Of a stretch of 54,915 bases of DNA, positions 1-39,003 are shown one piece after another. The stretch spans positions 1-54,915 of IMG/VR virus record IMGVR_UViG_3300033485_000015, one strand, 5' to 3'. Position numbers and translations under genes: made by a program. The notes beneath the pieces are model-generated. The model was not told the DNA's origin. It searched no databases and saw nothing but the letters and a program-made list of their open reading frames with translations. The DNA comes from a virus (taxonomy: Duplodnaviria > Caudoviricetes). The first letter of the stretch is position 1. Every line of letters begins with the position of its first letter.

Positions 1-885
1 AACGTGCGTCCTGCTCTGGCGGATCGGCGTGGGTGGTGCTGGTTGATTGGTGTACCTGAGGGTCGGAACCATTATTATGATTTGTGGCAGAAGTACAGCG
101 ACGGGAGTGATCCTGACTGGGATGGGTTCACGTGGAAGAGCATAGATATTGTTGATCCTGCGGAGATTGAGAGTGCGCGGCGTGATCTTGACCCATTGAC
201 CTTTGCGCAGGAGTTTGAGGCATCGTTTATTAACTTTGAGGGTAGGGCGTATTATCCGTTTGAGGAGCGGGTACATTGCGGGTCGTTGAGGTATGACAAG
301 CGGAAGCCGTTGGTGTTCACGTTTGACTTTAACGTGAGTCCTGGTACGGCGGCGGTGATGCAGGAGCAGGTATTGCCTAACGGGATGCAGGGTACGGGTA
401 TTATTGGGGAGGTTTATATCCCGAGGAACAGCACGACACAGGCGGTATGCCGGAAGTTGCTGGCTGATTGGCATATGCACGAAGGAGAAGTGCGCTGTTA
501 TGGGGACGCTACGGGGGGTTCGCAGGGCACGGCGAAGGTGGATGGTTCGGATTGGGATTTGATCCGGCGGGAGTTGACCCCTCGTTTTGGGGAGCGGCTG
601 CGTATTTTGGTTCCTCGATCGAATCCTCGGGAGAAGGTGCGGGTTAACAGTGTGAACACGCGGTTGATGAATACGGCGGGGGACGTGCGTTTGATGGTGG
701 ACAAGAAGAGGGCACCTAATGTTGTGAAGGATTTTGACGGTGTAACATTGCTGAAGGGCGGGTCTGGTGAGATAGACAAGCGGGCTAACGAGGCACTCAC
801 GCACTTGACCGATGGTATAGGTTATTATATTGTTTACGAATTCCCAATAAAAGGCAATAAAGGCGAGGTAAGTTCCTTATGGTAG
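1..885 (+). CDS. terL: Terminase large subunit, C-terminal part (continues from 54481..54915 across the circular junction)
   Basis: Nuclease-domain motifs FDFNVSP, YGDATG, HLTDGIGY; in frame with the N-terminal ATPase half at the window end (...KPEVWGANV|RPALADRRG). Confidence 0.93.
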   Translation, partial: NVRPALADRRGWCWLIGVPEGRNHYYDLWQKYSDGSDPDWDGFTWKSIDIVDPAEIESARRDLDPLTFAQEFEASFINFEGRAYYPFEERVHCGSLRYDKRKPLVFTFDFNVSPGTAAVMQEQVLPNGMQGTGIIGEVYIPRNSTTQAVCRKLLADWHMHEGEVRCYGDATGGSQGTAKVDGSDWDLIRRELTPRFGERLRILVPRSNPREKVRVNSVNTRLMNTAGDVRLMVDKKRAPNVVKDFDGVTLLKGGSGEIDKRANEALTHLTDGIGYYIVYEFPIKGNKGEVSSLW

Positions 886-2351
886 TAGCGCAAGAGAGCA
901 ATGTAGATTATGAATCGTTGGCGTATTCTGAGATGAAGGTACGTCGGGCATTGCCGCGTGTGTTGATGGGAGGAACGCCGACAATCAGGGAGAAGGGTAA
1001 GTTGTACTTACCGCAGCAACCCGCTGAGGATGATAATCATTATGCCACGCGGTTAAAGAATGCGGTATTGCGTAATTATTATCGCCGGACGGTGGAGACT
1101 TTGACGGGCAAGATTTTCAGCAAGCCTATTGTATTTCATGATGTACCTGAGCCTCTGCGGAGATATTTGGCGGATAACGTTGACCTAACGGGTAGGAATC
1201 TGCACAGTTTTGCTCGCAGTGCTTTCCGTGACGCGCTGATTGACGGTATTTCGTACATCTTGGTTGATTTTCCACCAACACAAGAGGAATTGAGTCTTGC
1301 GCAGGAGCGCGAGCAGGGAAAGCGGCCATATTGTGTGCAGTTGGAATCATCGAAGGTTATTGGATGGTTCACTGAGACGGTGGGAGAAGCTGAGGTATTG
1401 GTAGAGGTGCGTATTCGTGAGGTATACCGGAAACGGAGCACGGAGCACGGGTTATACGGTGAGGAAGAGATTACGCGAGTTCGTATTTTGCGTCCTGGGA
1501 CGTGGGAAGTATGGGAGACGAACGGGGAAGCGGGCTGGTCTATGGTGGGGAGCGGTAAATTTTCGCTTAACTTCATCCCATTGATCCCTATTTATACGAG
1601 TAGGACTCGCTTTATGGAAGCGGAGCCGCCTTTAGAGGATTTGGCATATATGAATTTGGAGCATTACCAGATCAGGTCGGATCAGCGCAATGCACTTTCT
1701 GTTGCTTCATGGCCACTGTTTGCCGCTGTGGGTTATGATAAGGAGACAGAAGGGGAGCGGCTTGTTATTGGGCCGAATAAGGCTTTGACGTCCTCTGATC
1801 CGAACACGAAGTTTCACTTTGTGGAGTCGGCGGGTAATCATCTTGCGGCGGGGGATCGCGAGTTGAAGAATCTCGAAGCGGATATGCGCCTATTTGGCTT
1901 GCAGTTCGAGGTGGATAAGGCCACGGCGGAGAGTGCCACGGGTAGGGCGTTAGATAACGCAGAAGGTGTTGCGCCATTGATGGCTTGGGCGTTGAGCCTT
2001 GAGGACTCCTTGAACACTATGCTTGTTTACATGGGGGCATGGATTGGAATTGCGCCGGAGGATGTTGGGACTATTGAGGTTAATAAAGACTTCGGTATGA
2101 GCTTGAAGGATCAGGGCGAGATTGAGGCCTTATTACGTAGTCGTCAGGCGGGTGACATTAGCCAGGAAACCTTCCTGACGGAATTGAAGCGTAGGGGATT
2201 CTTTGGCGATGATTTCAATGTAGAAGTGGAAATGACACGAATTGAAAACGAAGGCCCTGTTGGCGGGGACTTTAGCAACCGTGGGGTACAGGGACAAGGC
2301 TCTTTAGCACCTTTGGTTAATGCGGAGGACGCGGCGAGTGGCAACATTTAA
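879..2351 (+). CDS. Portal protein (DUF4055-like)
   Basis: Follows TerL; 490 aa; YLPQ..E...Y.RL..A and PPLEDLAYMNLEHYQ motifs typical of DUF4055 portals. Confidence 0.88.
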   Translation: MVVAQESNVDYESLAYSEMKVRRALPRVLMGGTPTIREKGKLYLPQQPAEDDNHYATRLKNAVLRNYYRRTVETLTGKIFSKPIVFHDVPEPLRRYLADNVDLTGRNLHSFARSAFRDALIDGISYILVDFPPTQEELSLAQEREQGKRPYCVQLESSKVIGWFTETVGEAEVLVEVRIREVYRKRSTEHGLYGEEEITRVRILRPGTWEVWETNGEAGWSMVGSGKFSLNFIPLIPIYTSRTRFMEAEPPLEDLAYMNLEHYQIRSDQRNALSVASWPLFAAVGYDKETEGERLVIGPNKALTSSDPNTKFHFVESAGNHLAAGDRELKNLEADMRLFGLQFEVDKATAESATGRALDNAEGVAPLMAWALSLEDSLNTMLVYMGAWIGIAPEDVGTIEVNKDFGMSLKDQGEIEALLRSRQAGDISQETFLTELKRRGFFGDDFNVEVEMTRIENEGPVGGDFSNRGVQGQGSLAPLVNAEDAASGNI

Positions 2352-3408
2352 CGAGTCGTTAGTTGATGCGTCGACCGAATACACACTCGATTTGAACCGT
2401 GTGGGAAATACGGTTGCACGTCAAGATATATTGCCCTTACTTTTGCGATTAGAAGAAGACTTAATTGGTAAATTGGCCTCCTCGGGGGTTGCTGGTGGCG
2501 CGGTGGACAAGGTGCGCAGTCTTCTAGCGTGGGTTAAGGATGCTATTAACGAAGTTTACGCGAGGATGGAAGGAATAACGGGCGAAACGTTAGCAGGTAT
2601 TGCTGAAACGGAATCATTATTTTGGAAGAAGGCAATCAATGGTGGCGTTGGTATTGAGATACTGACCAGCCTTCCTACGGTGAAGCAGTTGGAGGTACTC
2701 GCAAGGAAAGTTCTGATTGCTGGCGCGGTTAATGAGGAATGGTGGAATAGGCAGGCGCGAGAATTGAGACAGCGGTTTGAGGATCAATTACGGATGGGAA
2801 TTGCGCTTGGGGAGACGAATGACGATATTATCCGGCGTGTAAGGGGTAGGAGGGAGAATGGCTTCAAAGATGGAATTATGCGTGTATCGCGCAAGGATGC
2901 GGATGCCTTGGTAAGAACAGGCATTCAAACGGTATCTAATAAGGTTCGGACTGAGATATTTGACGCGAATAAGGATATATTCAAAGGGTACAAGCAAGTA
3001 TCTACACTGGATACGCGCACATCCCCTATTTGCATAGCGTATAGTGGTAAGAGGTGGGACGAGCGGTTTAGGCCTATAGGGCATAAGCTTCCGTATAACG
3101 GGGGCACTCCGCGTCATTGGCGTTGCCGTAGCTTTATTGTGCCTATTGTAAAGAGCTGGAAGGAGTTAGGGATCAATTTAGACGAGGCACCAATGGGTAC
3201 TCGATCCTCTATGACAGGGCAGGTTCCGGCAGATACTACCTTTAACGATTTCTTGAAGGGAAGAACCAAGGCGGAACAGGATGAAATTCTAGGTAAGGGT
3301 GTGGCTACGCTTTGGCGGGGGGGTAAGATTGGTTTAGCACAACTTGTTGATTCTTCTGGTACGCGTGCCCTTACACTCGGCGAATTACGCCAAAAACTGG
3401 TTAAGTAG
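2338..3408 (+). CDS. Minor head / head morphogenesis protein (MuF / SPP1 gp7-like)
   Basis: STLDTRTSPIC and PRHWRCRS motifs; GTG start at 2338 preceded by GGAGG. Confidence 0.88.
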   Translation: MATFNESLVDASTEYTLDLNRVGNTVARQDILPLLLRLEEDLIGKLASSGVAGGAVDKVRSLLAWVKDAINEVYARMEGITGETLAGIAETESLFWKKAINGGVGIEILTSLPTVKQLEVLARKVLIAGAVNEEWWNRQARELRQRFEDQLRMGIALGETNDDIIRRVRGRRENGFKDGIMRVSRKDADALVRTGIQTVSNKVRTEIFDANKDIFKGYKQVSTLDTRTSPICIAYSGKRWDERFRPIGHKLPYNGGTPRHWRCRSFIVPIVKSWKELGINLDEAPMGTRSSMTGQVPADTTFNDFLKGRTKAEQDEILGKGVATLWRGGKIGLAQLVDSSGTRALTLGELRQKLVK

Positions 3409-3412
3409 TGGG

Positions 3413-3440
3413 TTGATAAAATTAAGGATGTGTGTATAAT
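3413..3440 (+). promoter_or_regulatory. Possible sigma70-like promoter upstream of the scaffold gene
   Basis: TTGATA-16 bp-TATAAT in the intergenic gap. Confidence 0.4.
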
Positions 3441-3521
3441 TAATTTTAACACAGTGTACGTGATGTCGCGTGTTATGCGTGATGCAACAATGATATTTAG
3501 GCGTGATGCCAAGGAGTAAAT

Positions 3522-4310
3522 ATGGCTGATTTTGATTTTCCCGAAATGACCGAGTCTTTGGACGTTGTACCGGAGGCATACCGTGCGTTTTATAAGCAGA
3601 AAGGTGAAGGCGAGGGTTTCGCTATCGCTGACGGGCTTAAAAGTCTTCTTGATGAAAAGGCAACTTTGCGAAGGACGATAGAAAACGAACGTAAGATGAC
3701 AAAGGCGGAACGCGCGAAGGCGAAGGCATGGGAAGAGCTAGGTAAAGCTCCCGATGAGATTAAAGAGTTACTAACCGAGCGTGAAAAGCGCGAAGCCGAG
3801 AAGGCGGAGAAAGAAGGAAACTGGGAGACTCTGAAAAAACAGATGTTAGACCAGCACCTTAAGGAATTGGAAAAGGAGCGTAAAGAGAAGGATACCCTTC
3901 TTGGTGCTTTGAAACAAAACCTTGTCAATGCCACGGCCGCGAATGCTATTGCCACGGTGGGCGGTATTCCGCAATTACTGATGCCTCATATTGAATCCCA
4001 TGTGAAGGTGGTTCAAGAAGATGGCCAGTATCAAGTGCGGGTATTGGATGCTAAGGGCGAGCCGCGAATTAACGCAAATGGTGACTTCCTGACGATCAAG
4101 GATTTAGTGGAAGAAATGCGAAACGATCAAATTTTTTCGCGCTGTTTCAACGGTTCTGGTATGTCCGGTAGTGGTAGCTCAGGTAACACTGGGGGTGGTT
4201 CGAATAATCAGAAGAAGGCCTTAAAGGATATGAGTGCGGCGGACAAAGCGGCATTCATTAGTGCTAATGGTTTGGAAGCGTGGCAAGAACTGTTACGCCC
4301 AAGGAAATAA
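3522..4310 (+). CDS. Capsid scaffold protein
   Basis: Charged coiled-coil, Gly/Ser linker and short C-terminal helix; directly upstream of the capsid gene. Confidence 0.82.
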   Translation: MADFDFPEMTESLDVVPEAYRAFYKQKGEGEGFAIADGLKSLLDEKATLRRTIENERKMTKAERAKAKAWEELGKAPDEIKELLTEREKREAEKAEKEGNWETLKKQMLDQHLKELEKERKEKDTLLGALKQNLVNATAANAIATVGGIPQLLMPHIESHVKVVQEDGQYQVRVLDAKGEPRINANGDFLTIKDLVEEMRNDQIFSRCFNGSGMSGSGSSGNTGGGSNNQKKALKDMSAADKAAFISANGLEAWQELLRPRK

Positions 4311-4328
4311 TCTTTAAGGAGAATTTAT

Positions 4329-5330
4329 ATGGCTACTGGTAAGGCGAGTGATTTTAAAATTTATAATGAACAGTTTTTCGGTGGTATGACCGAGCAATTG
4401 ACGCAGTTTTCAAATGCAATGAATGCCGCGTCAAATAATGCTCTGCGCGTTATTCCACAAATGCTGAAAGGGGACTATGAATACGAAAGTTTCTTCCAGA
4501 ATATTACCAACTCAGTAACACGTCGTGACACTACCTCTGTAGCAACCGCTACAGACCTTGCTCTGACGCAGGATGAATTGGTTTCTGTGAAACTTAATCG
4601 TAAGATTGGCCCTGTTGCTAACACGATTGACTCATTCCGTAAGATTCAGGAAGCTGCTGGCCCTAACGGTCAGGAGTCTCTTTCATTCTTGCTGGGTGGG
4701 CAGATTGCGAAGGCAATTGAGGTTGACTATCTGAATACTATGTTGACTGCGTTAACTGGTGCCTTGTTGAGTAAATCAGACTTGGTACACCAAAACGTAG
4801 GAAGCAACTTAAGCACTGCGGGTCTTGTGCACGGTCTTTCCAAAATGGGAGATAATGCGGACAAGATTGTTGCTTGGGTGATGCACTCTAAAGCGTACTA
4901 CGACCTTGTACGCGGCCAGATTGCGGCAAATATTGATGGTGTGTCTAACTTCAACGTACAGACTGGAACGGCGGTGACGCTGAACCGTCCAGTTATTATT
5001 ACGGACAGTTCATCACTCATTTATCATCCAGGTGGGTCTGACGATTCCGACGAGTATTTAACTCTCGGTCTGGTACAGAACGCTGCCGTTGTTAAAGAGA
5101 GCGAAGAGCGTGATCTGGTATCTGAGGTTGTTACTGGTAACGAGAACCTCATTGTACGTCTGCAAGGTGAATATGCGTTCAACTTGGGCTTAAAAGGCTT
5201 TAAGTGGGATGTACAGAACGGCGCAGCTAACCCGAACAGCACCGCACTTGGTACTGGTTCTAACTGGGATTCTGTAATGGCTTCCGTTAAGAACCTGGCT
5301 GGTGTAGTGATTCGCAGTACATCTAACTAA
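4329..5330 (+). CDS. Major capsid protein
   Basis: 333 aa; synteny; WVMHSK, GFKWD and NP...L.TGSNW motifs of siphophage coat proteins. Confidence 0.9.
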   Translation: MATGKASDFKIYNEQFFGGMTEQLTQFSNAMNAASNNALRVIPQMLKGDYEYESFFQNITNSVTRRDTTSVATATDLALTQDELVSVKLNRKIGPVANTIDSFRKIQEAAGPNGQESLSFLLGGQIAKAIEVDYLNTMLTALTGALLSKSDLVHQNVGSNLSTAGLVHGLSKMGDNADKIVAWVMHSKAYYDLVRGQIAANIDGVSNFNVQTGTAVTLNRPVIITDSSSLIYHPGGSDDSDEYLTLGLVQNAAVVKESEERDLVSEVVTGNENLIVRLQGEYAFNLGLKGFKWDVQNGAANPNSTALGTGSNWDSVMASVKNLAGVVIRSTSN

Positions 5331-5338
5331 GGTTCTAT

Positions 5339-6211
5339 ATGCTCAGGATTTGCATTTATGGCTTGCCTGGGTATGGTATCGCAGACTATGTAGCTCGAGG
5401 GCTAGAGGTCTGCGATACCTCCGTTAAGGTAACATGGCGGCGTCATGACGTTTTCAGGCCAGATTGTTACGAGAGCGCGTTTGACATTATTGTGACGAAT
5501 GGGTTACGCCGTCCGTATAACGAGATTGTTGAAACGTACCAAAAGCAAGGAAAGATAGCTTTGATCACGGATTTAGGTTTAATCCGCAAAGAACCTGGGT
5601 ATTATCAAATAGGTATTAACAAGCTGGGCGGTATTATGCCCTTCCAAGCTCCCAGTGATCGTTTTGATGCTTTAAATGAACCTATTGCTACGCGTAGGGC
5701 GAAAGGAAAGCATATATTAATCTGCGGTCAGCGTCCTGGTGACGCCGCGCATGGTTTTAATGAGGATCAGCTTAGAGCGTACTATGAAAGTAGTATTCGT
5801 GTTATTCGTGATGTTGTAGGGGATAAATATCCTATTGTCTGGCGGCCTCATCCATCATCTAACTTCCTTGTAAGGGGTGGTGATAGAGTATCTTTAGCAA
5901 AGGATATAATGGAGGATTTAGCCGACGCTTACGCTGTTGTCACTTATAATTCAACAACTGGTTTGTCTGCTTTGTTAAACGGTGTTCCTTTAGTGTGCCA
6001 TTCTGGGGCATATTATGCGGACTTGGCCGAAACGAATTTACGAAATATTGATAATATAAAGGCACCTTCCAAGGCGAAGGTACAGGAATTTTTTAATCGT
6101 GTTGCATACAGTCAATGGACGAAGGAAGAGATCGAGAAGGGTCTGCCTTTTAAATATATCTTTTCTGCTCTCCGAGGAATGAATCCTTTTGAAGGTCTAG
6201 CCAGTGAGTAA
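5339..6211 (+). CDS. Capsule-synthesis family (KpsS/KpsC, GT107-like) glycosyltransferase
   Basis: GQRPGD (QxxxD), VWRPHP (HP) and VVTYNSTTGLSALLNGVP motifs. Confidence 0.72.
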   Translation: MLRICIYGLPGYGIADYVARGLEVCDTSVKVTWRRHDVFRPDCYESAFDIIVTNGLRRPYNEIVETYQKQGKIALITDLGLIRKEPGYYQIGINKLGGIMPFQAPSDRFDALNEPIATRRAKGKHILICGQRPGDAAHGFNEDQLRAYYESSIRVIRDVVGDKYPIVWRPHPSSNFLVRGGDRVSLAKDIMEDLADAYAVVTYNSTTGLSALLNGVPLVCHSGAYYADLAETNLRNIDNIKAPSKAKVQEFFNRVAYSQWTKEEIEKGLPFKYIFSALRGMNPFEGLASE

Positions 6212-6995
6212 TATAAGTGTTGTTACGTCCTTTTCACCAGAAGGATATGAAAAATATGGGAAGCGATGTTTAGAGACGTTTGATCAATACTGGCCTAAAG
6301 GATGCCAGTTAGTAGCTTATGTTGATGAACGCCCTAGGGAAGAATATAGCGCACGTATCCGTTATGAGAACTTGGAGGCAGTAAATCCCATATTGAAACG
6401 ATTCAAAGACAGGCATCTGACCAACAATATAGCGCATGGAAAAAAAGAGGACGGATCATACACATTTTTATATGACGCGGTTAGGTTTTCTCATAAAGTA
6501 TTTGCATATACTCATGCTATCATGAATGCACCAAGCTGGATAGATCGTGTAATATGGCTTGATGCGGATTGCGTTACTCATGCTCCAACTTCGAATGCGG
6601 AGTTATACAGTCTCTTAGCGGACAATGAGTTGTGTGGGTTCTTCGAGCGTGTAAACAATTATCCTGAGACAGGATTTATCATATTTAATACTGCGCATAA
6701 AGAAAAAGAGCGATACGCACGATGGATTCAACAGGTTTACGATAAGGACATGATCTTTACGTTGCCTCGGTGGACAGATTGCCATGTCTATGAATATATT
6801 GTGAAGCAAGCACGACAGCACGGCATGGTATGTAAGAACCTCTCAGGGGAGCATAGCACTGTCAGTCACCCAATTATACATGTGCTAGGCCATTTCCTCG
6901 ATCATTTGAAAGGGGAGCGTAAGATTATAGGGAAGTCGGATATTAAGAAGAAAGATTTGCGTATTGCTCGAACCGAACCATACTGGACGAAGTAA
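6204..6995 (+). CDS. GT-A fold glycosyltransferase
   Basis: IWLDAD (DxD), RFSHKVFA, YPETGF, WTDCHVY, DHLKG motifs. Confidence 0.75.
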   Translation: MSNISVVTSFSPEGYEKYGKRCLETFDQYWPKGCQLVAYVDERPREEYSARIRYENLEAVNPILKRFKDRHLTNNIAHGKKEDGSYTFLYDAVRFSHKVFAYTHAIMNAPSWIDRVIWLDADCVTHAPTSNAELYSLLADNELCGFFERVNNYPETGFIIFNTAHKEKERYARWIQQVYDKDMIFTLPRWTDCHVYEYIVKQARQHGMVCKNLSGEHSTVSHPIIHVLGHFLDHLKGERKIIGKSDIKKKDLRIARTEPYWTK

Positions 6996-7772
6996 ATGCC
7001 TATATATTGTTACATTCTAAAAGAACGCAGAAAGAAAACTGAACGTATACTAGGTAACTTTGCCAAAGGTTGCGATGCGCAGTTAATTTATGATGAGCAT
7101 TTGCGAACCGATGGCCCCGCCGTGTTCTGGGGCCAAATATACGCATCACAACGATTAATGCGTGAATGTATAGAGAAGGGCATAGACTTTTACCAGATAG
7201 ACAATGGTTATTTCCATGCTGCTAGGGGAACATCTATAGGTTATTTCCGCGTTACTAAAAATGCGTTAGCTAAGAATTGGGTTGATGTATGCCCAGACGA
7301 TAGATGGAAAGCCTTGAATATTCCTTTGATGCCTTGGCGTCAATATACCAACACAGGGATCGTTGTCCTGTGTGTTCCTGGGAGGAACTTTGGCGCGTAT
7401 ATGGGAATGGATATGGATAAATGGGCGGCTATTACACAGAAAAAATTGAGCACAATCACATATAGGAAGGTTTATATTAGGCCGAAGCTGAAGGAACCTT
7501 CGCTTTTAGATGTTCTATACTCGACACAATCTCATTGCGTTGTCACACATTCATCTAATGCCGCTGTTGAAGCAGTAATTGCGGGGTTCCCTGTGTTCTG
7601 CCATGACTTATGCGCGGCGCATCCGGTAGCAAATAGTTTGGAATTTGATAGATTGGAAGATCCTTTACTGCCTGACAGACAGGCATGGGTAAATTCGTTA
7701 GCCTACGGGCAATTCACATTAGAGGAATTTTCAAATGGCACGGCGTGGTCAATATTAAGAGGTAATTTATGA
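6996..7772 (+). CDS. Second capsule-synthesis family (GT107-like) glycosyltransferase, paralog of 5339..6211
   Basis: IDNGYF, DRWKAL, VVTHSSNAAVEAVIAGFPV and LAYGQFT.EE motifs parallel DRFDAL / VAYSQWT.EE in the first copy. Confidence 0.68.
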   Translation: MPIYCYILKERRKKTERILGNFAKGCDAQLIYDEHLRTDGPAVFWGQIYASQRLMRECIEKGIDFYQIDNGYFHAARGTSIGYFRVTKNALAKNWVDVCPDDRWKALNIPLMPWRQYTNTGIVVLCVPGRNFGAYMGMDMDKWAAITQKKLSTITYRKVYIRPKLKEPSLLDVLYSTQSHCVVTHSSNAAVEAVIAGFPVFCHDLCAAHPVANSLEFDRLEDPLLPDRQAWVNSLAYGQFTLEEFSNGTAWSILRGNL

Positions 7773-8494
7773 TAAAGAATGAGATTTTTATTGGTTATGA
7801 TGACCGCGAGCGTGTGGCTTATAACGTTTGCGCCTTTTCCATCATGCGGAGAAGCTCGCAACCTATAGACATAACACCCTTGAAATTAGACGCTCTACGA
7901 AAGGAAGGGTTATATACACGGCCACATATTAAGCGTAAACGCGGTTATCTGTGGGATGTGATTTCTGATGCACCAATGGCTACAGAATTTGCAAATTCTC
8001 GGTGGCTGGTTCCTTATCTCGCAGAGAATAAATGGTCGTTATTTATGGACTGCGACATGCTCCTTGTTACTGACATTAACAAGGTGTTTCAGCAAGTAGA
8101 TGATAAATATGCAGTGATGTGTGTGAAACATGATTATCAGCCTAAAGACACGGTAAAGATGGATAATTGCGAACAGACGCAATACAGCCGGAAGAATTGG
8201 TCTAGTTTCATGCTGATCAACAAGCAACATCCGGCGAACAAGCGCTTAACGTTAAAGATGATCAATGAGACCCCCGGGCGTGATTTACACAGGTTTTGTT
8301 GGTTGAATGATGACGAGATCGGTGGGTTAGACGAGGGCTGGAATTGGTTAGAAGGGCATTCTCCAAAAGATACTCTTGATATATACAACATTCATTATAC
8401 ACGTGGGGGACCGTGGTTTGATGAATGGAAAGATGTTGATCTTGCAAATATTTGGGAGGCGGAGTATGCTTTATATAAAAGAGTAAGGAGTTGA
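7769..8494 (+). CDS. GT8-like (CDI-family) glycosyltransferase
   Basis: IFIGYD.RE, LFMDCDML (DxD), RKNWSSFML, WNWLEG, HYTRGGPWF motifs. Confidence 0.85.
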   Translation: MIKNEIFIGYDDRERVAYNVCAFSIMRRSSQPIDITPLKLDALRKEGLYTRPHIKRKRGYLWDVISDAPMATEFANSRWLVPYLAENKWSLFMDCDMLLVTDINKVFQQVDDKYAVMCVKHDYQPKDTVKMDNCEQTQYSRKNWSSFMLINKQHPANKRLTLKMINETPGRDLHRFCWLNDDEIGGLDEGWNWLEGHSPKDTLDIYNIHYTRGGPWFDEWKDVDLANIWEAEYALYKRVRS

Positions 8495-8496
8495 TC

Positions 8497-9006
8497 ATGA
8501 CACTGACAGTCGAGGACGGAACAGGAATTAGCACGGCGGATTCTTATGCTTCTGTAGCGAATACCAATACATACTGGCAGAAGCGAAAAACCCTGACCCT
8601 TTCATCTACTTGGGATGATGCGAGTGACACGCAGAAAGAAAGTGCGTTGCGCATAGCAACTGATTACTTAGACAATACGTTCTGTTGGTTAGGAAACAGA
8701 TCGTCATCAACACAAGCCCTACAGTGGCCGCGTCGCAATGTGTATGATGATCGTGGTGTGGAATTATCGGCGCAGGTTCCAACAGCCGTAAAAGTCGCTT
8801 GCTATGAATTAGCCGCACGTGCTTTAAGCGAGGATATACGCGAGGATATAAGCAATGAGGACGTAGTCGAGCAGGAAAAAGTTGGCCCCATTGAAGTGAA
8901 GTATAGGGCGGGTTCTTCGTCTGTTAAATCATATAGGAAAGTACGTGACTTACTAAAGAATCTAACGTTAAGTAGCGGCGCAAGTTTAGATATGGTGCGG
9001 GCATAA
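8497..9006 (+). CDS. Head-tail adaptor (DnaT-like family)
   Basis: VEDGTG...ADSYAS, QALQWPR, EKVGPIEVKY motifs; AGGAG RBS. Confidence 0.82.
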   Translation: MTLTVEDGTGISTADSYASVANTNTYWQKRKTLTLSSTWDDASDTQKESALRIATDYLDNTFCWLGNRSSSTQALQWPRRNVYDDRGVELSAQVPTAVKVACYELAARALSEDIREDISNEDVVEQEKVGPIEVKYRAGSSSVKSYRKVRDLLKNLTLSSGASLDMVRA

Positions 9007-9007
9007 T

Positions 9008-9388
9008 ATGTCATTCAATTACTCCACTCTTCGGCGTAGTGCGTTGAATCTGATTAACAGATTCGGTCAGAGTATGACGTACACAAGCAAGGCCGCTGCG
9101 GCGTATAGTGTGAGTACAAGCTCCGTTACCTTAACCAATACGGACTACACAGTTAAGGGAGTGGTATTTGATTTTGATACAATGAATACCGGAACCCAGA
9201 TGCTTGATAATTCTTTAATTGAGGCAGGGGATAGGCGCGTCTACATAGCCGCTTCGGGGTTAAACTTCACACCAAAATTAGAGGACACCCTCACAATTAA
9301 TTCTGAGGTATGGCGTGTTGTGCGTATTATTAATGCTATCGATCCAGGTGGTACTATGCTCCTGTATGACCTACAGATAAGAAGGTAA
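9008..9388 (+). CDS. Head closure / head-tail joining protein
   Basis: LINRFG, IEAGDRRV, IDPGG..LLYDLQIRR; synteny. Confidence 0.75.
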   Translation: MSFNYSTLRRSALNLINRFGQSMTYTSKAAAAYSVSTSSVTLTNTDYTVKGVVFDFDTMNTGTQMLDNSLIEAGDRRVYIAASGLNFTPKLEDTLTINSEVWRVVRIINAIDPGGTMLLYDLQIRR

Positions 9389-9391
9389 TTT

Positions 9392-9802
9392 GTGGCGGGA
9401 CGCTTTGCTATTGATATATCACGCTTTATAGATAAGACACAAACAAACCTAAATGTTGTTATAAGAAAGATTGTTTTTGATGTGTTTGTTAGGGTCGTGC
9501 TTAAAACGCCTGTTGATACAGGGAGGCTCGTAGGTAATTGGTTCCCTTCTGTGGGCTCGCCGTCTACTTTATTTAATGAGGGGTCTACTGATCCTGATAA
9601 AACAGCGGCTCAAATACGAATTCGCGATATAACACAGAATATAAAACCCGGAGATACCATCTTTCTTATAAATAATACGCCATATGCCAATTTTATTGAG
9701 TCCGGCGGGTCGAAGATTAAAGCTCCGCAAGGGATGGTTAATATTACGTTGCAAGAATACAGAGGAATAGTAGAACGTGCGGCAAGTGAGGTTAGACGAT
9801 GA
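9392..9802 (+). CDS. HK97 gp10-like tail completion protein
   Basis: TPVDTGRLVGNW, NNTPYA..IE.G.S..APQGMV. Confidence 0.85.
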   Translation: MAGRFAIDISRFIDKTQTNLNVVIRKIVFDVFVRVVLKTPVDTGRLVGNWFPSVGSPSTLFNEGSTDPDKTAAQIRIRDITQNIKPGDTIFLINNTPYANFIESGGSKIKAPQGMVNITLQEYRGIVERAASEVRR

Positions 9803-10197
9803 CTATACGAAAAATACGGATTGCTTTGGAAACAAAACTTGCGGCACTGTCTGGGGTGTGGCCAACAGCCTACGAGAATAGCAGATTCGTCCCTACAACG
9901 GGAACAAATTGGCAACGGGCAACTCTTCTTCCCTCACCTATACAGGACTTCGCTGGGACAACAACAACTCGCAAATACACAGGGCTTTTCCTGATTAATG
10001 TATTCACTGAAGCGAACAAGGGCGTAAAAGCGGCGGAAGATTATGCTCTTTCCTTATTAGAGCACTTTCCTAAAGGCTTGATACTTACGCAGGATTCGGT
10101 TACAGTTAGAATAGAAGGCCCTTATGTAGGCGTTGCTAACTCAGACGAGAAATGGTACAACATCCCTGTATGGGTTCCGTGGTTCACGTATTTTTAA
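9799..10197 (+). CDS. Tail terminator (DUF4128-like)
   Basis: AYEN..F.P, G.F.INVF, HFPKG motifs; synteny. Confidence 0.75.
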   Translation: MTIRKIRIALETKLAALSGVWPTAYENSRFVPTTGTNWQRATLLPSPIQDFAGTTTTRKYTGLFLINVFTEANKGVKAAEDYALSLLEHFPKGLILTQDSVTVRIEGPYVGVANSDEKWYNIPVWVPWFTYF

Positions 10198-10209
10198 TGG
10201 AGTAAATAG

Positions 10210-11412
10210 ATGGTCACTTTCGCAGTTAGCAGCCTTGCAGACTTGGGCTATGTACAAGAGGAAACGTTCGGCGAGGTACCACCTTCTCCGGCATTAACAA
10301 AGATTCGCCGTGTAAGTTCGTCCCTGAATTTGTCAAAGGACACTTATGAATCACAGGAAATTCGCTCCGATAGAATGGTGGCGGATCACAGGCATGGTGT
10401 TCGTCGTGTTAGCGGGGATATTGCCTCAGAACTCTCTGTTGATAGTTTTGATGAGTTCCTGCAAGCAATCATGGGTGGGACATGGACTGCGGGGGTATCT
10501 AAGTCTAATACACAATTTACTAGCGTTACGTCGGATTCATCAACAAGGACTTTCACTTTTGCGGCTGGGAACCCAGTAACGGAAGGCTTCCGCGTGGGTG
10601 ATATTATTCGTTTCACGAACCTTGCGGCTACAGCGAACAACAACACAGATTTCACGATTGTTTCATTCTCTGGAACACAGAACCGCATTATTACAGTGGC
10701 TGAATCTGTTACAACTGATGCAGTGGCGGACACATCGTTCACAGTTGCGGTTGTAGGGTATAAGCTTAATATTGGGAATACATACCGCTCATTCACGATT
10801 GAAATGGGGCATACAGATATTTCGCAATATCGCGTATATAAAGGATGCCGTGTGAACTCCGTTGCGTTTGAATTGCCCCCGACGGACATGGTACGAGCTA
10901 CCTGGGGAATTGTGGGGCAAGATATGTCAACTATCAGTGCGGTTTCCATTGACGCAGCATATTCTGACGCGCCAACAAACTCACCACTCGCCGCTGTTGA
11001 TGCAACCCTCTATGAAGGTAGTACCTTCACTGAACTTGGAAGCGTTACGGGGCTTACCTTCGATATTAATAATAATCTTGATGGCAAACCCGTGGTAGGA
11101 AGTAATACCTTACCTAACCTTCTTTATGGTAATAAACAGGAAGTGACAGGTGAGCTTACTGTATTGTTCCAGAATGCTACAATGTTGAACAAGTTCATCA
11201 ATGAGACAGAAAGCAACATCTTCATCAAATTAAGTGATCCGAATGGTACGGATTTCTTAAAGATTTTCTTCCCACGTGTTAAATATAACGGTGGGGAGAT
11301 TGGGGACGCTGACCCGCAAGGATTGCCTATCACTATGCCTTTCGTTGCATTGGCACCGTCTGCAACGGATGATGACGATTCCGCTGTTGTCTTCCAACGT
11401 TCTAACGCTTAG
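10210..11412 (+). CDS. Major tail tube protein with inserted beta-rich domain
   Basis: E.TFG, S.EIRSDR, SFTIE, FPRVKY; upstream of the chaperone and tape measure genes. Confidence 0.88.
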   Translation: MVTFAVSSLADLGYVQEETFGEVPPSPALTKIRRVSSSLNLSKDTYESQEIRSDRMVADHRHGVRRVSGDIASELSVDSFDEFLQAIMGGTWTAGVSKSNTQFTSVTSDSSTRTFTFAAGNPVTEGFRVGDIIRFTNLAATANNNTDFTIVSFSGTQNRIITVAESVTTDAVADTSFTVAVVGYKLNIGNTYRSFTIEMGHTDISQYRVYKGCRVNSVAFELPPTDMVRATWGIVGQDMSTISAVSIDAAYSDAPTNSPLAAVDATLYEGSTFTELGSVTGLTFDINNNLDGKPVVGSNTLPNLLYGNKQEVTGELTVLFQNATMLNKFINETESNIFIKLSDPNGTDFLKIFFPRVKYNGGEIGDADPQGLPITMPFVALAPSATDDDDSAVVFQRSNA

Positions 11413-11421
11413 GTATAAAAT

Positions 11422-11838
11422 ATGGATATTTCGCAAATTGATTTTGGTAATTCGAATACTGGTATTGATATGGTTCTAACCCACCCTGTAAGTGGGTTAG
11501 AAATTGTAGACAAGGAAACTAACGAGCCTGTAAGCCTTAAAGTAGTAGGTGCGGAGTCCGATGTGTACAAAGAGGCACAACGCCGGATCACCAACCAGAA
11601 ACTATCGAAGGCGAAGGGAAAGAAAGATATTTCCTTCACCGCCGAAGAGTTAGAGTCTTTCCGAATTCAATTAATTGCTGCATGTATTCGTGGATGGTCA
11701 CATATTGGTCTTGGTGAGGCTAAGGAGCTTCCATATTCTGAACAGAACGCAAAGCGTTTACTTGTTACAGCTCCTTGGATTCTTGAGCAAGTCGAGACTT
11801 TTGTGGGTGATCGCGCAAATTTTACGCAGAAGAAGTAG
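11422..11838 (+). CDS. Tail assembly chaperone (gpG-like)
   Basis: Synteny; ends with slippery heptamer A AAT TTT at 11817-11823. Confidence 0.82.
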   Translation: MDISQIDFGNSNTGIDMVLTHPVSGLEIVDKETNEPVSLKVVGAESDVYKEAQRRITNQKLSKAKGKKDISFTAEELESFRIQLIAACIRGWSHIGLGEAKELPYSEQNAKRLLVTAPWILEQVETFVGDRANFTQKK

Positions 11839-12203
11839 AGCAATTACTCTCCTTCGCCACTTCGGAATTTGCCCTTTCTAAAGTAGACGGCCACGGCTAC
11901 AGTGTAAGGGAGCATCTACAGGCCATAGAGGCGCGGACAGGAAAAACGCCTGATGGGTTACAGAATAGCGACCCAGGCGCGTTTGAGTATTTATGGGGGT
12001 ACTTCTGCGAATTATCTCTTGGCAGATCATCTTCAGGTTATAGTCCTAACCCTTTATCATTTACAGAAATTCTTGCGTGGTGTACACTACGTAAAATAAA
12101 CCTGTCTACTTTCGAATTGGATATGATAAAGAGATTAGACACGCAATGGCTAGATTTTAGCCAGAAAGAGGCTCGAAAGGAGAGTAAGAGACATGGTGGC
12201 TGA
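11823..12203 (+). CDS. Tail assembly chaperone -1 frameshift extension (gpT-like; not in the ORF track)
   Basis: Open -1 frame after the slippery site: YAEEVEQLL...YLWGYFCELSLGR...PNPLSFTEILAW...IKRLD, TGA at 12201-12203. Confidence 0.8.
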   Translation, partial: YAEEVEQLLSFATSEFALSKVDGHGYSVREHLQAIEARTGKTPDGLQNSDPGAFEYLWGYFCELSLGRSSSGYSPNPLSFTEILAWCTLRKINLSTFELDMIKRLDTQWLDFSQKEARKESKRHGG

Positions 12204-14376
12204 TATTGCGCAGTTAGGTATTGAAGTAAATACAACAGGCGTCACTAAAGCCACGGCATCGCTATCTGCACTTGGTAAGCAAGCGGAGCAGGTTGAATCA
12301 AAGACGCATAAGCTGTCGAGTTCACAACAAAAGCTTGATAATACCCTAGGTAATCTAGGGCGTACTTTTAATACACTACAAACGGCAGTGCAGGGGTATA
12401 TTGCCCTTCTTGGTATAAATAAGCTTGTAGAATACGCTGACACATGGAAACTTATAAATGCGCGGATTAATCTTGTTACCGATAGCACAGAAGAATTTGC
12501 CGCTGTGCAAGCAGAGCTATTCAGAATTTCACAAGAAACGCGAACAGAACTTAATGCTACGGCTGCTTTATATACACGACTCGGAAGGCTCACGGATGAG
12601 TTGGGACGTTCACAGGCGGACATGCTGCGAGTAACAGAACTTGCGCAGAAGGCAATTAGAGTATCTGGCGCGACCTCGGCGGAGGCTTCTGCCGGGGTGG
12701 TTCAGTTGGGACAGGCATTAGCCTCTGGTAGATTACAGGGGGATGAATTACGCTCGATCCTTGAAAATATGCCCCGCTTAGCAGAGGCTATCGCCGCTGG
12801 GATGGGTGTTACAATCGGGAAGTTGCGAGAATTGGGGAAGGAGGGGTCTTTAACAGCGGGTGTTGTAATTGATGCCTTATTGTCGCAAGGAAAAGTATTA
12901 GATGATGAATTTAGCCAACTGCCTTTAACTGTAGATCAGTCCTTAACACAGATGAAAAACGCATTTATGCGGTGGTTAGGTACGGTGGACGAGTCAACAG
13001 GATTAACGCAAGGTTTATCCTCTGCCATTTCTTTTTTGGCAATGAATTTTGATACGCTAATGAATGTGATTGCTATAGTGGCAACACTGATATTGACTTC
13101 ATTGGTTCCTGCCATTGCTTCTTCTCTTGTTGGTGCCATTGCAACGGCTTATACAGCGGTACAGGGGTTCTTTGCTTTATTATTAGCTAATCCGTTTGTT
13201 CTCTTAGCTACCTTGATAGCGGGCGCAGTTGCTTGGCTTGTTACTTTCGGGGATCAGATGACTGTATTACAAGGCGATACAGCAACTTATTTTGATTATG
13301 TCATTGCGGGATGGCAGGGACTCACTGAGGTCGTGTCTAATGTTGTGACAGGTATACAGGCAGGATGGGAGGCTCTACTCGGTGTTCTTGGTGCTATTGC
13401 TAACGAGATTGTTCGCTTTTTTACGGAAGCGTGGTCAAAAGTAGTTGAGACATTCAATAAAACATTAGACTATCTAAAACAGAAATTTGCGGCCTTCATG
13501 GATTTTATAGGTGTCGAAATGGCAACAGTGGACGCCGCGCTTGCGCCTCTGAAAACGGTTGGCGGGGAAATAGGTAAAGGATTCGACGCTGCGCAAAAGT
13601 CCTTAGAGGATGTAGGACGTGGAGCTTCCGTAGTAGGTGGTGCTATTGCTGATACAGCAACAAACATAGGGAGTAAATGGCGCGATGCGGCAAATGAGAT
13701 TGCCAAAACGAGACACGCGGCATCGGGTAAGACAACAGGGATTGACTTAAGCATTCTTGGGGAAACCCCGCTTGGGGCAACAGGCGTTTCCACAGGTACA
13801 ACGGAGCTTGATAAGGTCAAGACAAAGAGCAATGAGACAAGAAAGTTAGTGGAACAACAGTGGAAACAAACAGGTGATACTCTCTCGGATAGTTTGGGTC
13901 GAGCTATCGGCGATGCTTTCGAGACAGGACGCTTTAGCTTTGATTCATTCTTCGAGAATGTACGGAATGAACTTGCACGGAACGCAGCATCGAATATAGG
14001 TAAATCATTCGGGCAGTTAGGCAATACATTATTTGGTGGAATGGGTGCGAGTACTGGAATGGCTGGCGCGGGTGCTGGCATGTTTGGCTCAGCCATAGGC
14101 GCGGCATTCTCTGGGATGTTTGGCCAAGGTGCTTTTGCCGACGGTGGGAACTTCGTGGGTGGTAAGGCAATGCTTGTAGGCGAAAGAGGCCCCGAGGTTA
14201 TCGTGCCAAGGACTGGCGGAACGGTTATTCCAAACGGCGGTGGTTCTGCCGCGCCTGTAATCAATATGAACATATCTACCCCCGATGTAGCTGGGTTTAG
14301 GCAGTACGCATCAAAAGGTCAGATAGCCGCTGATATGGCTTCATCATTAAGACGTTTAGGAGCGCGTAACTCATGA
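12193..14376 (+). CDS. Tail tape measure protein
   Basis: QLGQALASGRLQGDELRSILEN N-terminal motif; C-terminal FADGG...VGERGPE. Confidence 0.93.
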   Translation: MVADIAQLGIEVNTTGVTKATASLSALGKQAEQVESKTHKLSSSQQKLDNTLGNLGRTFNTLQTAVQGYIALLGINKLVEYADTWKLINARINLVTDSTEEFAAVQAELFRISQETRTELNATAALYTRLGRLTDELGRSQADMLRVTELAQKAIRVSGATSAEASAGVVQLGQALASGRLQGDELRSILENMPRLAEAIAAGMGVTIGKLRELGKEGSLTAGVVIDALLSQGKVLDDEFSQLPLTVDQSLTQMKNAFMRWLGTVDESTGLTQGLSSAISFLAMNFDTLMNVIAIVATLILTSLVPAIASSLVGAIATAYTAVQGFFALLLANPFVLLATLIAGAVAWLVTFGDQMTVLQGDTATYFDYVIAGWQGLTEVVSNVVTGIQAGWEALLGVLGAIANEIVRFFTEAWSKVVETFNKTLDYLKQKFAAFMDFIGVEMATVDAALAPLKTVGGEIGKGFDAAQKSLEDVGRGASVVGGAIADTATNIGSKWRDAANEIAKTRHAASGKTTGIDLSILGETPLGATGVSTGTTELDKVKTKSNETRKLVEQQWKQTGDTLSDSLGRAIGDAFETGRFSFDSFFENVRNELARNAASNIGKSFGQLGNTLFGGMGASTGMAGAGAGMFGSAIGAAFSGMFGQGAFADGGNFVGGKAMLVGERGPEVIVPRTGGTVIPNGGGSAAPVINMNISTPDVAGFRQYASKGQIAADMASSLRRLGARNS

Positions 14377-14987
14377 GTTTTGTAGAGGTGCAATTTCCAA
14401 CAGACATTTCATACGGAGCAACTGGTGGCCCTGAATGGTCAACTGATGTTGTTGAACTCGTTAATGGGTATGAGCGCAGAAATGCAAATTGGTCTTTACC
14501 TCGGTATAGATATAGCGTAGCTCATGCCGTTAAGACACAGCAACAAATGGATGCTTTACTTGCTTTTTTCAATGCGAGAAAAGGGAAGGCTATAGGCTTC
14601 CGGTTTAAAGATTGGTCTGACTTTGAAGGAGCAAATGAATTTCTTGGCTATGGTGATAGTCTTGACGCAACTTTCCAATTAAGGAAGGCGTACACGAGTG
14701 GAGGACAAACCGTATATCGAACTATCCGTAAACCAGTGAGTGGTACGGTTGCTGTTTATGTAAATAGTGTATTACAGACATTAAATACAGATTATACACT
14801 AAACACAACAACAGGCGTAATCACGTTTCTAGGTAGTGCTATTCCTTACTCGGGTGACTCTGTGAACGCCGATTTTGAGTTTGATGTTCCTGTTCGTTTC
14901 GATGTAGATCGTATGCCTGTTAGTATTGATGGTTTCGAAGTTTATAGTTGGGACTCCGCGCAGATTGTGGAGGTCTTGAATGACTAA
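14373..14987 (+). CDS. Distal tail protein (DUF2460, GTA-like)
   Basis: FPTDISYGATGGP, FF.ARKG...GFRFKDWSD, FEFDVPVRFD. Confidence 0.9.
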   Translation: MSFVEVQFPTDISYGATGGPEWSTDVVELVNGYERRNANWSLPRYRYSVAHAVKTQQQMDALLAFFNARKGKAIGFRFKDWSDFEGANEFLGYGDSLDATFQLRKAYTSGGQTVYRTIRKPVSGTVAVYVNSVLQTLNTDYTLNTTTGVITFLGSAIPYSGDSVNADFEFDVPVRFDVDRMPVSIDGFEVYSWDSAQIVEVLND

Positions 14988-15840: not shown

Positions 15841-16285
15841 GCGGCAGGACATAGAGAGTACAGCTGAGGCATGGGTAGGAACACCTTTCTTGCATCAAGG
15901 GAGGTCACGTTACTTGACAGATACACGGTGCGGCGGTTGTGATTGTATAGGTTTAATTATAGGGGTATCTAAGGATTTGAGCCTTATATCCGCGTTAGGG
16001 AAACCTATAGCGTTTTATGATGACGCAACATACTCCCCGATGCCCTCAGGTAACAGATTGCATAATTTACTTTCTTCTCATATGATAGAGAAGTCCCCAC
16101 AAGAGGCGGACATAGGCGACGTTTTATTATTCAAATTTGTGAAGTATCCGCAGCATGTGGCTTTCTTTACAAGTCAAGATTCTATAATACACAGCCATGC
16201 TCCTTATGGTGTGCGGCGTGAAATACTGAATGATAAGTGGAAGAAAAGACTTGTTGGTTGTTTTAGGTTTACAGAGGTGATTTAG
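15827..16285 (+). CDS. Tail-associated NlpC/P60 peptidase
   Basis: W.GTPF.HQGR, GCDCIGL, GDVLLF, QHVA, IIHS. Confidence 0.9.
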   Translation: MRQVRRQDIESTAEAWVGTPFLHQGRSRYLTDTRCGGCDCIGLIIGVSKDLSLISALGKPIAFYDDATYSPMPSGNRLHNLLSSHMIEKSPQEADIGDVLLFKFVKYPQHVAFFTSQDSIIHSHAPYGVRREILNDKWKKRLVGCFRFTEVI

Positions 16286-16287
16286 TC

Positions 16288-38864: not shown

Positions 38865-38865
38865 G

Positions 38866-39003
38866 TTATTTCTTCTTTTTGTGTTTTGATCTGTTGATAG
38901 CACGTTCTTGCTTTTCTGCTTCTTTCTTTGTCTTATGCTTACCCAAGACTTTCCCTGTTGTTTTAGATACAAGAACGTAACCAGATTTTTGTTTCTTTAT
39001 CAT
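38866..39003 (-). CDS. Small basic protein (45 aa; not in the ORF track)
   Basis: MIKKQKSGYVLVSKTTGKVLGKHKTKKEAEKQERAINRSKHKKKK; ATGA overlap with the upstream gene. Confidence 0.6.
   Translation of the reverse strand: MIKKQKSGYVLVSKTTGKVLGKHKTKKEAEKQERAINRSKHKKKK

Follow-up and report, generated by a model that had tools for sequence, protein, structure and literature searches.

A four-gene cassette separates the capsid and adaptor genes of a siphophage

The window analyzed here, a 54,915-b stretch of DNA that constitutes an entire IMG/VR virus record, carries four open reading frames (ORF1 through ORF4) for predicted glycosyltransferases (GTs) between the genes for its major capsid protein (MCP) and its Ad1 head-tail adaptor. 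The cassette that they form (5339-8494) lies on the same strand as the head genes, and its members are translationally coupled (Table 1). The stop codon of ORF4 abuts or overlaps the start of the Ad1 gene, for which an ATG at 8497, located behind a GGAG sequence, is a likelier start than position 8491. Over positions 3400-12200, 18 promoter-like sites were observed versus 18.1 in shuffled sequences, and 9 terminator-like sites were observed versus 6.8. No such site falls in an intergenic gap, because the array has no gaps.

A preliminary description of this DNA had claimed that four tightly coupled genes, with no evident terminator, interrupt a capsid-adaptor junction that is otherwise contiguous. 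The coordinates and the coupling proved to be exactly as described, terminator-like sites are at shuffle level with none in any gap, and in the closest cassette-free relative, the Tunturiibacter phage Tunturi_4 (L086; MCP 42% identical), the MCP gene is followed directly by the Ad1 gene. The G+C content of the cassette (42.5%) is lower than that of the head genes (47.9%), which fits its acquisition as a block, and we infer that the module was gained horizontally. None of the four proteins has a hydrophobic stretch of transmembrane strength (maximum 19-residue hydropathy ≤1.49). A megablast search with positions 4329-9006 yielded no match among GenBank phages. Among GenBank entries, the MCP nearest to that of the window belongs to Tunturi_4, an acidobacterial phage, which has an annotated glycosyltransferase gene of its own (1567-2565) between its terminase and portal genes.

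ORF1 and ORF3 form a KpsC/WbbB-like pair

Searches of the Protein Data Bank (PDB) with each of the four single sequences returned nothing significant, and ORF1 exhibits a weak match to PF05159 (5.2e-05). When a profile built from 13 homologs was used instead, ORF1 matched KpsC (6mgc, 1.6e-4) and WbbB (1.3e-3). The AlphaFold model of ORF1 (mean predicted local distance difference test score, pLDDT, of 88.6) gave a consistent result in Foldseek, wherein all of the matches listed to rank 16 are KpsC or WbbB structures (E values of 3.3e-9 to 8.6e-7), followed by KrkA. The template modeling (TM) scores for KpsC and WbbB, normalized by the query, are 0.44-0.56, and the structural alignments contain 12-17% identical residues. 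Residues Q131 and D135 of a QxxxD motif and H171 and P172 of an HP motif are at least 90% conserved among the 13 homologs. D135 aligns with D160 of KpsC, which is replaced by Asn in the D160N chain 8fuw, and the HP motif aligns with that of KpsC. By profile and model, ORF1 is a KpsC/WbbB-like (GT107/GT99-type) protein with the predicted fold of a retaining transferase for β-linked 3-deoxy-D-manno-oct-2-ulosonic acid (Kdo), and its donor and product are predictions as well.

ORF3 is a paralog of ORF1 (BLASTP 1e-11, 26% identity) that lacks both motifs, having Pro at the Gln position of QxxxD and Lys-Leu at the HP position. These changes are not peculiar to the window. The 187 ORF1/ORF3-like sequences collected from related loci fall into two clean classes, one carrying the Gln (85 sequences) and the His (84) and the other carrying Pro or Ser (101) and Lys or Arg (101) at the same positions, whereas 186 of the 187 retain R169, S205, and G215. 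Because the altered residues are common to about 100 of 187 homologs, ORF3 represents a conserved subfamily rather than a decayed copy.

Proteins of this type also occur in a giant algal virus. Four ORF1-like proteins of Tetraselmis virus 1, of which two bear the name capsule polysaccharide biosynthesis protein, are among the ten best structure matches in the BFVD database.

ORF2 and ORF4 are GT-A enzymes with DxD motifs

ORF2 has no Pfam match and no assigned CAZy family, and a profile of its family found no match among PDB sequences. Its structural model (pLDDT 95.7) nevertheless adopts a GT-A fold whose nearest neighbors are retaining GT8 and GT6 enzymes; the list of matches is headed by LARGE1, XXYLT1, and the ABO transferases GTA and GTB (E values near 1e-8, TM scores of 0.42-0.51). 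The family has 128 relatives, and the DxD motif of ORF2 is D120-A-D122, both aspartates of which are invariant in 38 sequences. Judged by model and motif, ORF2 is a GT-A DxD glycosyltransferase with a predicted GT8/GT6-like fold.

ORF4 belongs to phrog_28018 (9.8e-51) and has at least 7999 relatives, with tblastn yielding 19 phage records. Its DxD motif is D94-C-D96, and these two aspartates are invariant in 14 sequences. No Pfam model matches ORF4, including that for GT8 (PF01501), even at E values up to 10. Its nearest Atlas clusters are viral glycosyltransferases in which 12-43% of members carry PF01501, and structure matches to GT8-bearing clusters reach a TM score of 0.91. ORF4 is by these sequence and structure matches a putative GT8-like GT-A DxD glycosyltransferase.

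The enzyme assignments made in the preliminary description are largely upheld. It had recognized two KpsS/KpsC-like genes, the first with intact motifs and the second divergent, which agrees with the motifs conserved in ORF1 and absent from ORF3 and with the Foldseek matches to KpsC and WbbB. Its single DxD-type GT-A enzyme corresponds to ORF2, given the fold of the model and the invariant D120 and D122. For the gene that it had placed in a CDI/GT8-like family, the GT8-like character stands on the DxD motif of ORF4 and the GT8-bearing Atlas clusters, but a match to the Pfam GT8 model was not obtained. A review describes plant Cdi as a putative GT8 enzyme that uses GDP-L-galactose.

The module recurs among head-to-neck genes of unrelated phages

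Scans of IMG/VR with ORF1 or ORF2 as single proteins produced no confirmed relatives, whereas alignment-based scans succeeded. Profile scans recovered at least 584 ORF2-type and at least 599 ORF4-type loci, and 80 loci were kept from each set. Gene content was then counted by tblastn of the window proteins against 82 loci, comprising the 80 ORF2-anchored loci and two GenBank phages. Matches to ORF1 were found in 76 loci, to ORF3 in 78 (these two counts overlap because the paralogs cross-match), and to ORF4 in 61. Genes for an NT-cupin protein, in which a nucleotidyltransferase (NT) domain is fused to a cupin domain, matched in 24 loci, and NT-cupin homologs lie in or beside the cassette in many other phages. 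Matches to GDP-mannose 4,6-dehydratase (Gmd; 10 loci), a DegT-type protein (7), and the window-type MCP (3) are fewer. An FkbM methyltransferase gene was detected at 61 loci, and 9 have a Maf/Cst-II-like gene; neither gene occurs in the window. The composition of the module varies greatly between phages. From this comparison of sequences, the cassette is a widespread and evidently mobile module.

Flanking genes were annotated for 27 hand-chosen IMG/VR loci. The module resides inside the head-neck-tail array in nine of them (L025, L028, L040, L046, L079, L083, L049, L043, and L031), and these nine represent five or more different junctions and several portal and MCP PHROG families. In another 12, the module forms a T4-like island with UvsX/UvsY and/or a phrog_16 helicase at its borders, and the remainder are unclear. 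When the 80 ORF4-anchored loci were sorted with a local panel, 54 proved to be T4-like islands, 9 had siphophage structural flanks (one of which is the L040 contig again), and 17 stayed unclassified.

One relative, L025, has direct terminal repeats and encodes a large terminase (TerL) and an MCP that are 61% and 60% identical to those of the window. At the same MCP-Ad1 junction, it carries ORF1, ORF2, an FkbM methyltransferase gene, NT and cupin genes, ORF3, and ORF4. Elsewhere the junction differs. L028 and L040 have ORF4, ORF2, and a methyltransferase gene between the portal gene and the scaffold and MCP genes. In L046 and L079, a Maf-like gene, ORF4, an NT gene, ORF2, FkbM, and ORF3 follow an MCP gene of phrog_29 and precede neck and tail genes. 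L083 has an MCP gene of phrog_10, a Maf-like gene, and the adaptor gene, then ORF4, ORF2, and ORF3, and then Hc1 and Neck1. The module lies directly after Ad1 in L049, between Hc1 and Neck1 in L031, and directly before Neck1, the tail terminator, and the tube gene in L043.

Similar placements are found in other records. A prophage in a Mesorhizobium metagenome-assembled genome (MAG) has the module between a gp6-like connector gene and gp10-like/gp17-like neck genes. In a podovirus-labelled genome, genes for a tetratricopeptide repeat (TPR) protein, FkbM, and an ORF4 homolog are located between those for the MCP and a 'stabilization protein'. In MW202713, also podovirus-labelled, ORF2- and ORF1-type genes stand just upstream of the terminase and portal genes, and in Caulobacter phage C2 a tail gene is followed directly by a Maf-like gene, two ORF3-like genes, and one ORF4-like gene. 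In all sipho- or podo-type carriers that could be classified, the module is in or beside the head-to-neck genes; L143, L149, L163, and L175 have partial flanks only. Three of the carriers are classed as proviruses in IMG/VR, and their cassettes lie within the array of late structural genes, which is a poor place for genes of lysogenic conversion. The presence of the module in head-neck arrays of unrelated capsid and portal lineages supports a link to virion morphogenesis. Thus, the survey of capsid-GT synteny that the preliminary description called for finds the linkage in several unrelated phage lineages.

The Maf assignment used above is weak (PF01973, 33.5 bits versus a 34.6-bit cut-off; Cst-II, E value of 0.009). 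A seeming Maf-ORF4 fusion in L079 was rejected, as the coordinates show that the Maf-like match and the long ORF are read in different frames.

A late-promoter-like motif precedes the module in T4-like islands

The T4-like carriers have a conserved arrangement, wherein UvsX and UvsY genes are followed by genes for the NT-cupin protein, ORF4, ORF3-type, and ORF2-type proteins and then by the helicase gene (among L004-L083 and L139-L218). The sequence NATAAATA, which we take to be the T4-type late promoter motif, occurs no more than 100 nt ahead of the gene that opens the cassette, an NT-cupin homolog, in 34 of 64 distinct T4-like upstream regions. It is found upstream of none of the UvsX (0/45), UvsY (0/60), or helicase (0/64) genes. 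When late-promoter matches were counted for all genes, a mild excess was observed inside cassette spans (15/256 versus 6/215).

A broader proposal can be made. The widespread islands of aquatic and soil phages that have been labelled as 'LPS / cell-wall' islands, including those of T4-like cyanophages and pelagiphages, might be late-expressed systems for virion glycosylation, evolutionarily tied to the flagellin-glycosylation islands of bacteria, rather than auxiliary genes for the host surface, although we regard this extension as rather doubtful. If it is true, many phages of Gram-negative bacteria would release sugar-coated particles with Kdo-like and deoxyhexose residues, and the siphophage of the window would be the clearest genomic pointer to such a role for these islands.

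Bacterial homologs are found in a flagellar locus

Two Rhodospirillales-type MAGs (L127 and L130) contain, next to flbT and fliK, homologs of ORF4, ORF2, and ORF3 along with genes for ManC, Gmd, a TPR-GT41 (OGT-like) protein, and sulfotransferases. In one of these MAGs (L127/L220; G006:C1, approximately 2714000-2739000), the order is flagellin, ManC, Gmd, TPR-GT41, sulfotransferase, ORF4 homolog, TPR protein, ORF2 homolog, ORF3 homolog, sulfotransferase, FlbT, and FliK, with the gene for the 591-aa flagellin a few kilobases upstream (L127/G006). This island is a candidate locus for a sulfated flagellin glycan. The occurrence of the homologs in a flagellar locus points to protein-linked glycans as the product of this enzyme set. 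A flagellin gene initially attributed to L130 was discounted, because the contig examined (G005:C16) differs from that of L130.

In a nonphage context, Pseudovibrio (L121:9752-12496) and Rhizobium populisoli (L103:9952-12660) encode proteins of about 900 aa that combine a KpsC-like (PF05159) part with a GT29 sialyltransferase-like part, and the corresponding genes directly follow homologs of ORF4 and ORF2.

The window encodes a likely route to a GDP-dideoxyhexose

Genes for sugar-nucleotide synthesis are located elsewhere in the window. The Gmd match to TIGR01472 (445.5 bits) exceeds the 415-bit cut-off, and the product of a second gene resembles ColD- and E1-type NDP-4-keto-6-deoxyhexose 3-dehydratases, which depend on pyridoxamine 5′-phosphate (PMP) (Table 1). 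The active site of this second protein reads FSHHIT, with His where the Lys of aminotransferases sits; wild-type ColD likewise reads SHH at this position, whereas deposited mutant chains of ColD carry Asn or Lys there. A perosamine pathway formed by Gmd and the DegT-family protein was considered and rejected, given the poorer match to perosamine synthetase (1.5e-40 versus 2.9e-61 for ColD) and the His at the Lys position. Together, the two enzymes would likely produce GDP-4-keto-3,6-dideoxyhexose of the colitose type. A ColC-type reductase was not found in the window, and a 237-aa ORF beside gmd (32409-33122) has no family match. The NT-cupin protein matches TIGR02199 below the cut-off (1.5e-16), and a HAD-IIB (Cof-type) hydrolase, weakly assigned, might contribute a sugar-phosphate step. 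A GNAT protein is encoded in the window as well.

Glycosylation of virion proteins and its alternatives

We propose from comparative genomics that the cassette is a late-expressed system for glycosylation of virion proteins, a possibility that we consider serious yet just short of probable. Soluble cytoplasmic enzymes would assemble a short sugar chain on subunits of the capsid, neck, or tail during particle assembly, with the MCP as a candidate acceptor. Using a cytidine monophosphate (CMP)-linked sugar that a Gram-negative host already makes, ORF1 would transfer Kdo or another ulosonic acid like it, and ORF2 and ORF4 would add hexose or deoxyhexose units, one of which may be the phage-made GDP-3,6-dideoxyhexose of colitose type. 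ORF3 may be a second KpsC-like enzyme with altered chemistry, or a partner protein. Aside from the placement in head-neck arrays, the late-promoter-like motif, the flagellar-locus homologs, and the missing precursor genes for DNA modification lend further comparative support.

Several observations weigh against this proposal. An alignment of MCPs reveals no cassette-specific Ser/Thr-rich extension, and the solved relatives of ORF1 (KpsC, WbbB, and KrkA) are known to act on lipid-linked or polysaccharide acceptors. The sugar-nucleotide genes of the window sit in its replication module, and sugars of the 3,6-dideoxyhexose kind are typical of O-antigens. T4-like myoviruses, wherein the module lies between recombination and helicase genes and not beside structural genes, make up the largest group of carriers (54 of the 80 ORF4-anchored loci and 12 of 19 loci in one annotated batch). 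In these islands, a mere 2-5 nt separate the end of the late-promoter-like motif from the first in-frame ATG of the NT-cupin gene, such that both the start and the spacing are uncertain; given the fixed distance between motif and ATG, the true start probably differs from the annotated one. The 27 loci with annotated flanks were not a random sample, and the flagellar context involves two related genomes of 50 bacterial loci, with flagellin adjacency in one. Moreover, about 25 Rhizobium genomes have the ORF2 homolog alone, and the annotated example (L092) has transporter neighbors.

Some of these points fit instead with remodeling of the host envelope, wherein the enzymes would alter O-antigen or capsule intermediates, or the core of lipopolysaccharide (LPS), at the cytoplasmic face of the inner membrane. 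A change such as the capping of chains by Kdo plus a dideoxyhexose could serve to exclude competing phages, keep progeny from adhering to debris, or alter grazing. The nearest solved structures to ORF1 are those of KpsC and WbbB, some ORF4 relatives are named 'lipopolysaccharide biosynthesis glycosyltransferase', and the sugars of Gmd/ColD-type pathways are those typical of O-antigens. The position of the T4-like islands away from structural genes is equally compatible with this function. Two cyanophage papers class homologous clusters as serving cell-wall synthesis and modification (PMC12801897, PMC9602691), which appears from these accounts to be the default reading in the literature. However, ORF1 through ORF4 lack a transmembrane segment, and Pfam and PHROG scans of window ORFs of at least 90 aa revealed no flippase, ligase, polymerase, or Gtr-type membrane component. 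The timing of expression is also difficult to reconcile with such a role. Exclusion functions are typically early, whereas the module resides in late structural operons, a location that would keep it unexpressed in lysogens and that includes the operons of the three proviruses, and a late-promoter-like motif heads the T4-like islands. Furthermore, the insertion point differs among the classifiable sipho- and podo-type carriers, yet it is always in or beside the head-to-neck genes. We therefore consider envelope remodeling unlikely.

Two other acceptors deserve mention. Hypermodification of DNA, in which sugars are added to modified bases of the genome to block restriction, has precedents among other phage GT-A and GT-B enzymes. 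Phage GTs that are related to LPS enzymes are reported to glycosylate 5-hydroxymethylcytosine; some of their clusters are near structural-protein genes, but they normally adjoin enzymes for base-modifying precursors (Pyle et al., bioRxiv 10.1101/2023.12.21.572611). The window carries a C5-cytosine methylase gene, its sugar-nucleotide genes lie among replication genes, and the T4-like islands occupy a site between recombination and helicase genes. Many small ORFs of the window have no family, so a novel precursor pathway is conceivable. Yet no match to Tet_JBP (PF12851), the thymidylate synthase family (PF00303), or tRNA-guanine transglycosylase (TGT) was obtained in the window or in four other carriers, two of which are rated 100% complete; ThyX appears in one record only, which is not the window. 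The ORF beside the methylase gene (40865-41401) gives no dioxygenase signal, and the ORF1 fold is KpsC-like rather than like that of the T4 β-glucosyltransferase. Glycosylation of DNA is accordingly the least probable of the readings considered, and we hold it to be very unlikely. An acceptor such as host flagellin, pilin, another surface protein, a nonstructural phage protein, or a small molecule is also improbable, as is the view that the module is a selfish and mostly neutral passenger. The bacterial homologs in a flagellar locus make a flagellin-like acceptor possible in principle, and the variable composition of the module would suit either such an acceptor or a passenger. A host-protein target does not explain the recurrent placement in morphogenesis operons, however, and the catalytic residues conserved in the ORF1, ORF2, and ORF4 families argue against decay.

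Returning to glycosylation of virion proteins, the preliminary description had proposed late assembly of a glycan on the particle for camouflage or stability. The recurrence in head-neck arrays supports the link to morphogenesis that it had drawn; a glycan on a virion protein is a prediction, and the acceptor, the donors, and a function in camouflage or stability are speculation. It had also not recognized the enzyme set from any described proteobacterial siphophage, in agreement with our literature search, which found no report of such a set in a phage head operon and no demonstrated virion or capsid glycosylation outside of actinobacteriophages, archaeal viruses, and eukaryotic viruses. If the proposal is correct, phage virion glycosylation would extend to Gram-negative hosts with a different set of enzymes, and phage genes of a class that is very abundant in marine and fresh waters would gain a new interpretation. 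The consequences would touch on adsorption, grazing, immune recognition, and the stickiness of particles. Cultured carriers, including Caulobacter phages of the Bertelyvirus type (CcrColossus, CcrSC, C1, and C2) and Pelagibacter phage Mosig, make the idea testable.

Relation to known glycosylation systems

In mycobacteriophages of the Che8, Corndog, and Myrna type, tandem glycosyltransferases, often accompanied by an O-methyltransferase, are reported to modify capsid and tail-tube subunits (PMC11600133, PMC12619734, PMC13313380, PMC10877033). The likeness to the window is the presence of phage-encoded tandem glycosyltransferases. The hosts of those phages are Actinobacteria, whereas the window points to a Gram-negative host type and its glycosylation is predicted. 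Compared by description, the window set also differs in having β-Kdo-transferase-like enzymes and a putative GDP-dideoxyhexose route. Giant viruses such as chlorovirus PBCV-1 and the mimiviruses are eukaryotic but share virus-encoded GTs and pathways for GDP-mannose-derived sugars, and the ORF1-like proteins of Tetraselmis virus 1 add a predicted structural likeness to giant-virus glycosylation sets.

Among bacterial enzymes, KpsC and KpsS (GT107) and WbbB (GT99) share with ORF1 the fold, the position of the nucleophilic Asp of QxxxD, and the HP motif. Unlike them, ORF1 is a single 290-aa domain, and ORF3 lacks both motifs. The known acceptors of KpsC, KpsS, and WbbB are lyso-phosphatidylglycerol-linked or O-antigen glycans. 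Flagellin glycosylation islands of the Maf/DUF115 and FlmG-type TPR kinds are comparable in that bacterial homologs of ORF2, ORF3, and ORF4 occur with TPR-GT41 between flagellin and flbT/fliK, an arrangement that we presume to resemble that of FlmG-type glycosyltransferases. In nine loci, a Maf/Cst-II-like gene adjoins ORF4, whereas the window has no Maf-like or TPR gene.

The T4-like islands of the cyanophages P-SSM2, S-SCSM1, and S-SCSM2R and the pelagiphage Mosig share ORF4, ORF2, and ORF1/ORF3-type genes with the window, and they also hold NT-cupin, methyltransferase, sulfotransferase, and Gmd genes. Their location at a UvsY-helicase site, where they have been read as auxiliary metabolic genes for the host surface, contrasts with the head operon of a siphophage occupied in the window. 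O-antigen modification systems of the Gtr or Wzx/Wzy type are set apart by membrane flippase and transferase components that were not found in the window scans, and DNA sugar-hypermodification clusters by a 5mYOX/TET or thymidylate-synthase-family enzyme that was not found in the window and the four additional carriers.

Genome organization of the window

The gene for TerL reads in frame across the ends of the record (54481-54915 joined to 1-885). TerL of L025 aligns without a break over this junction, with its residues 24-165 at 54487-54915 and residues 164-456 at 1-879. This continuity indicates that the record is a closed, circularly permuted genome, despite a CheckV completeness estimate of 72% and a linear classification. 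The plus strand carries a classical siphophage late region, as judged from Pfam and PHROG scans of the window ORFs. The baseplate set is of the gene-transfer agent (GTA) type, which points to an alphaproteobacterial type of host.

Table 1. Features of the window. Numbers following family or structure names are E values unless bits are indicated.
Feature	Position	Strand	Assignment or remark
Portal	879-2351	+	
MuF-like	2320-3408	+	
Scaffold	3522-4310	+	
MCP, SPP1 Gp13-like	4329-5330	+	PF20036 8.5e-87; phrog_247 1.1e-42
ORF1, 290 aa	5339-6211	+	Starts 8 nt past MCP stop
ORF2, 263 aa	6204-6995	+	GTG start; 8-nt overlap with ORF1
ORF3, 258 aa	6996-7772	+	TAAATG junction with ORF2
ORF4, 241 aa	7769-8494	+	ATGA overlap with ORF3
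Ad1 head-tail adaptor	8491/8497-9006	+	Directly 3′ of cassette; phrog_477 1e-49; PF20557 7.7e-45
Hc1, Neck1, tail terminator, 400-aa tube protein, chaperone, tape measure		+	3′ of Ad1
Baseplate/distal-tail genes, GTA type	14373-20211		DUF2460, Gp84_N/BR0599, NlpC/P60, GTA_TIM with GH113-like stretch
Gmd	31414-32448	+	Replication module; TIGR01472 1.3e-133, 445.5 bits; PF16363 1.2e-129
HAD-IIB (Cof-type) hydrolase, weak assignment	35242-35994	+	PF08282 2.6e-4; TIGR00099 2.8e-5 (below cut-off)
NT-cupin: NT (HldE domain II-like) fused to mannose-6-phosphate-isomerase-type cupin	35988-36845	+	PF01467 8.3e-10; PF01050 7.7e-13
ColD/E1-type PMP-dependent NDP-4-keto-6-deoxyhexose 3-dehydratase	37644-38972	-	ColD 2gms 2.9e-61; E1 3bcx 1.1e-59
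C5-cytosine DNA methylase	39965-40864	-	
178-aa ORF beside methylase	40865-41401	-	Weak membrane-protein-like signals only

A separate 24.8-kb contig encodes a protein (P0218) that is 98% identical to ORF4, so a different assembly must hold a phage very closely related to this one.

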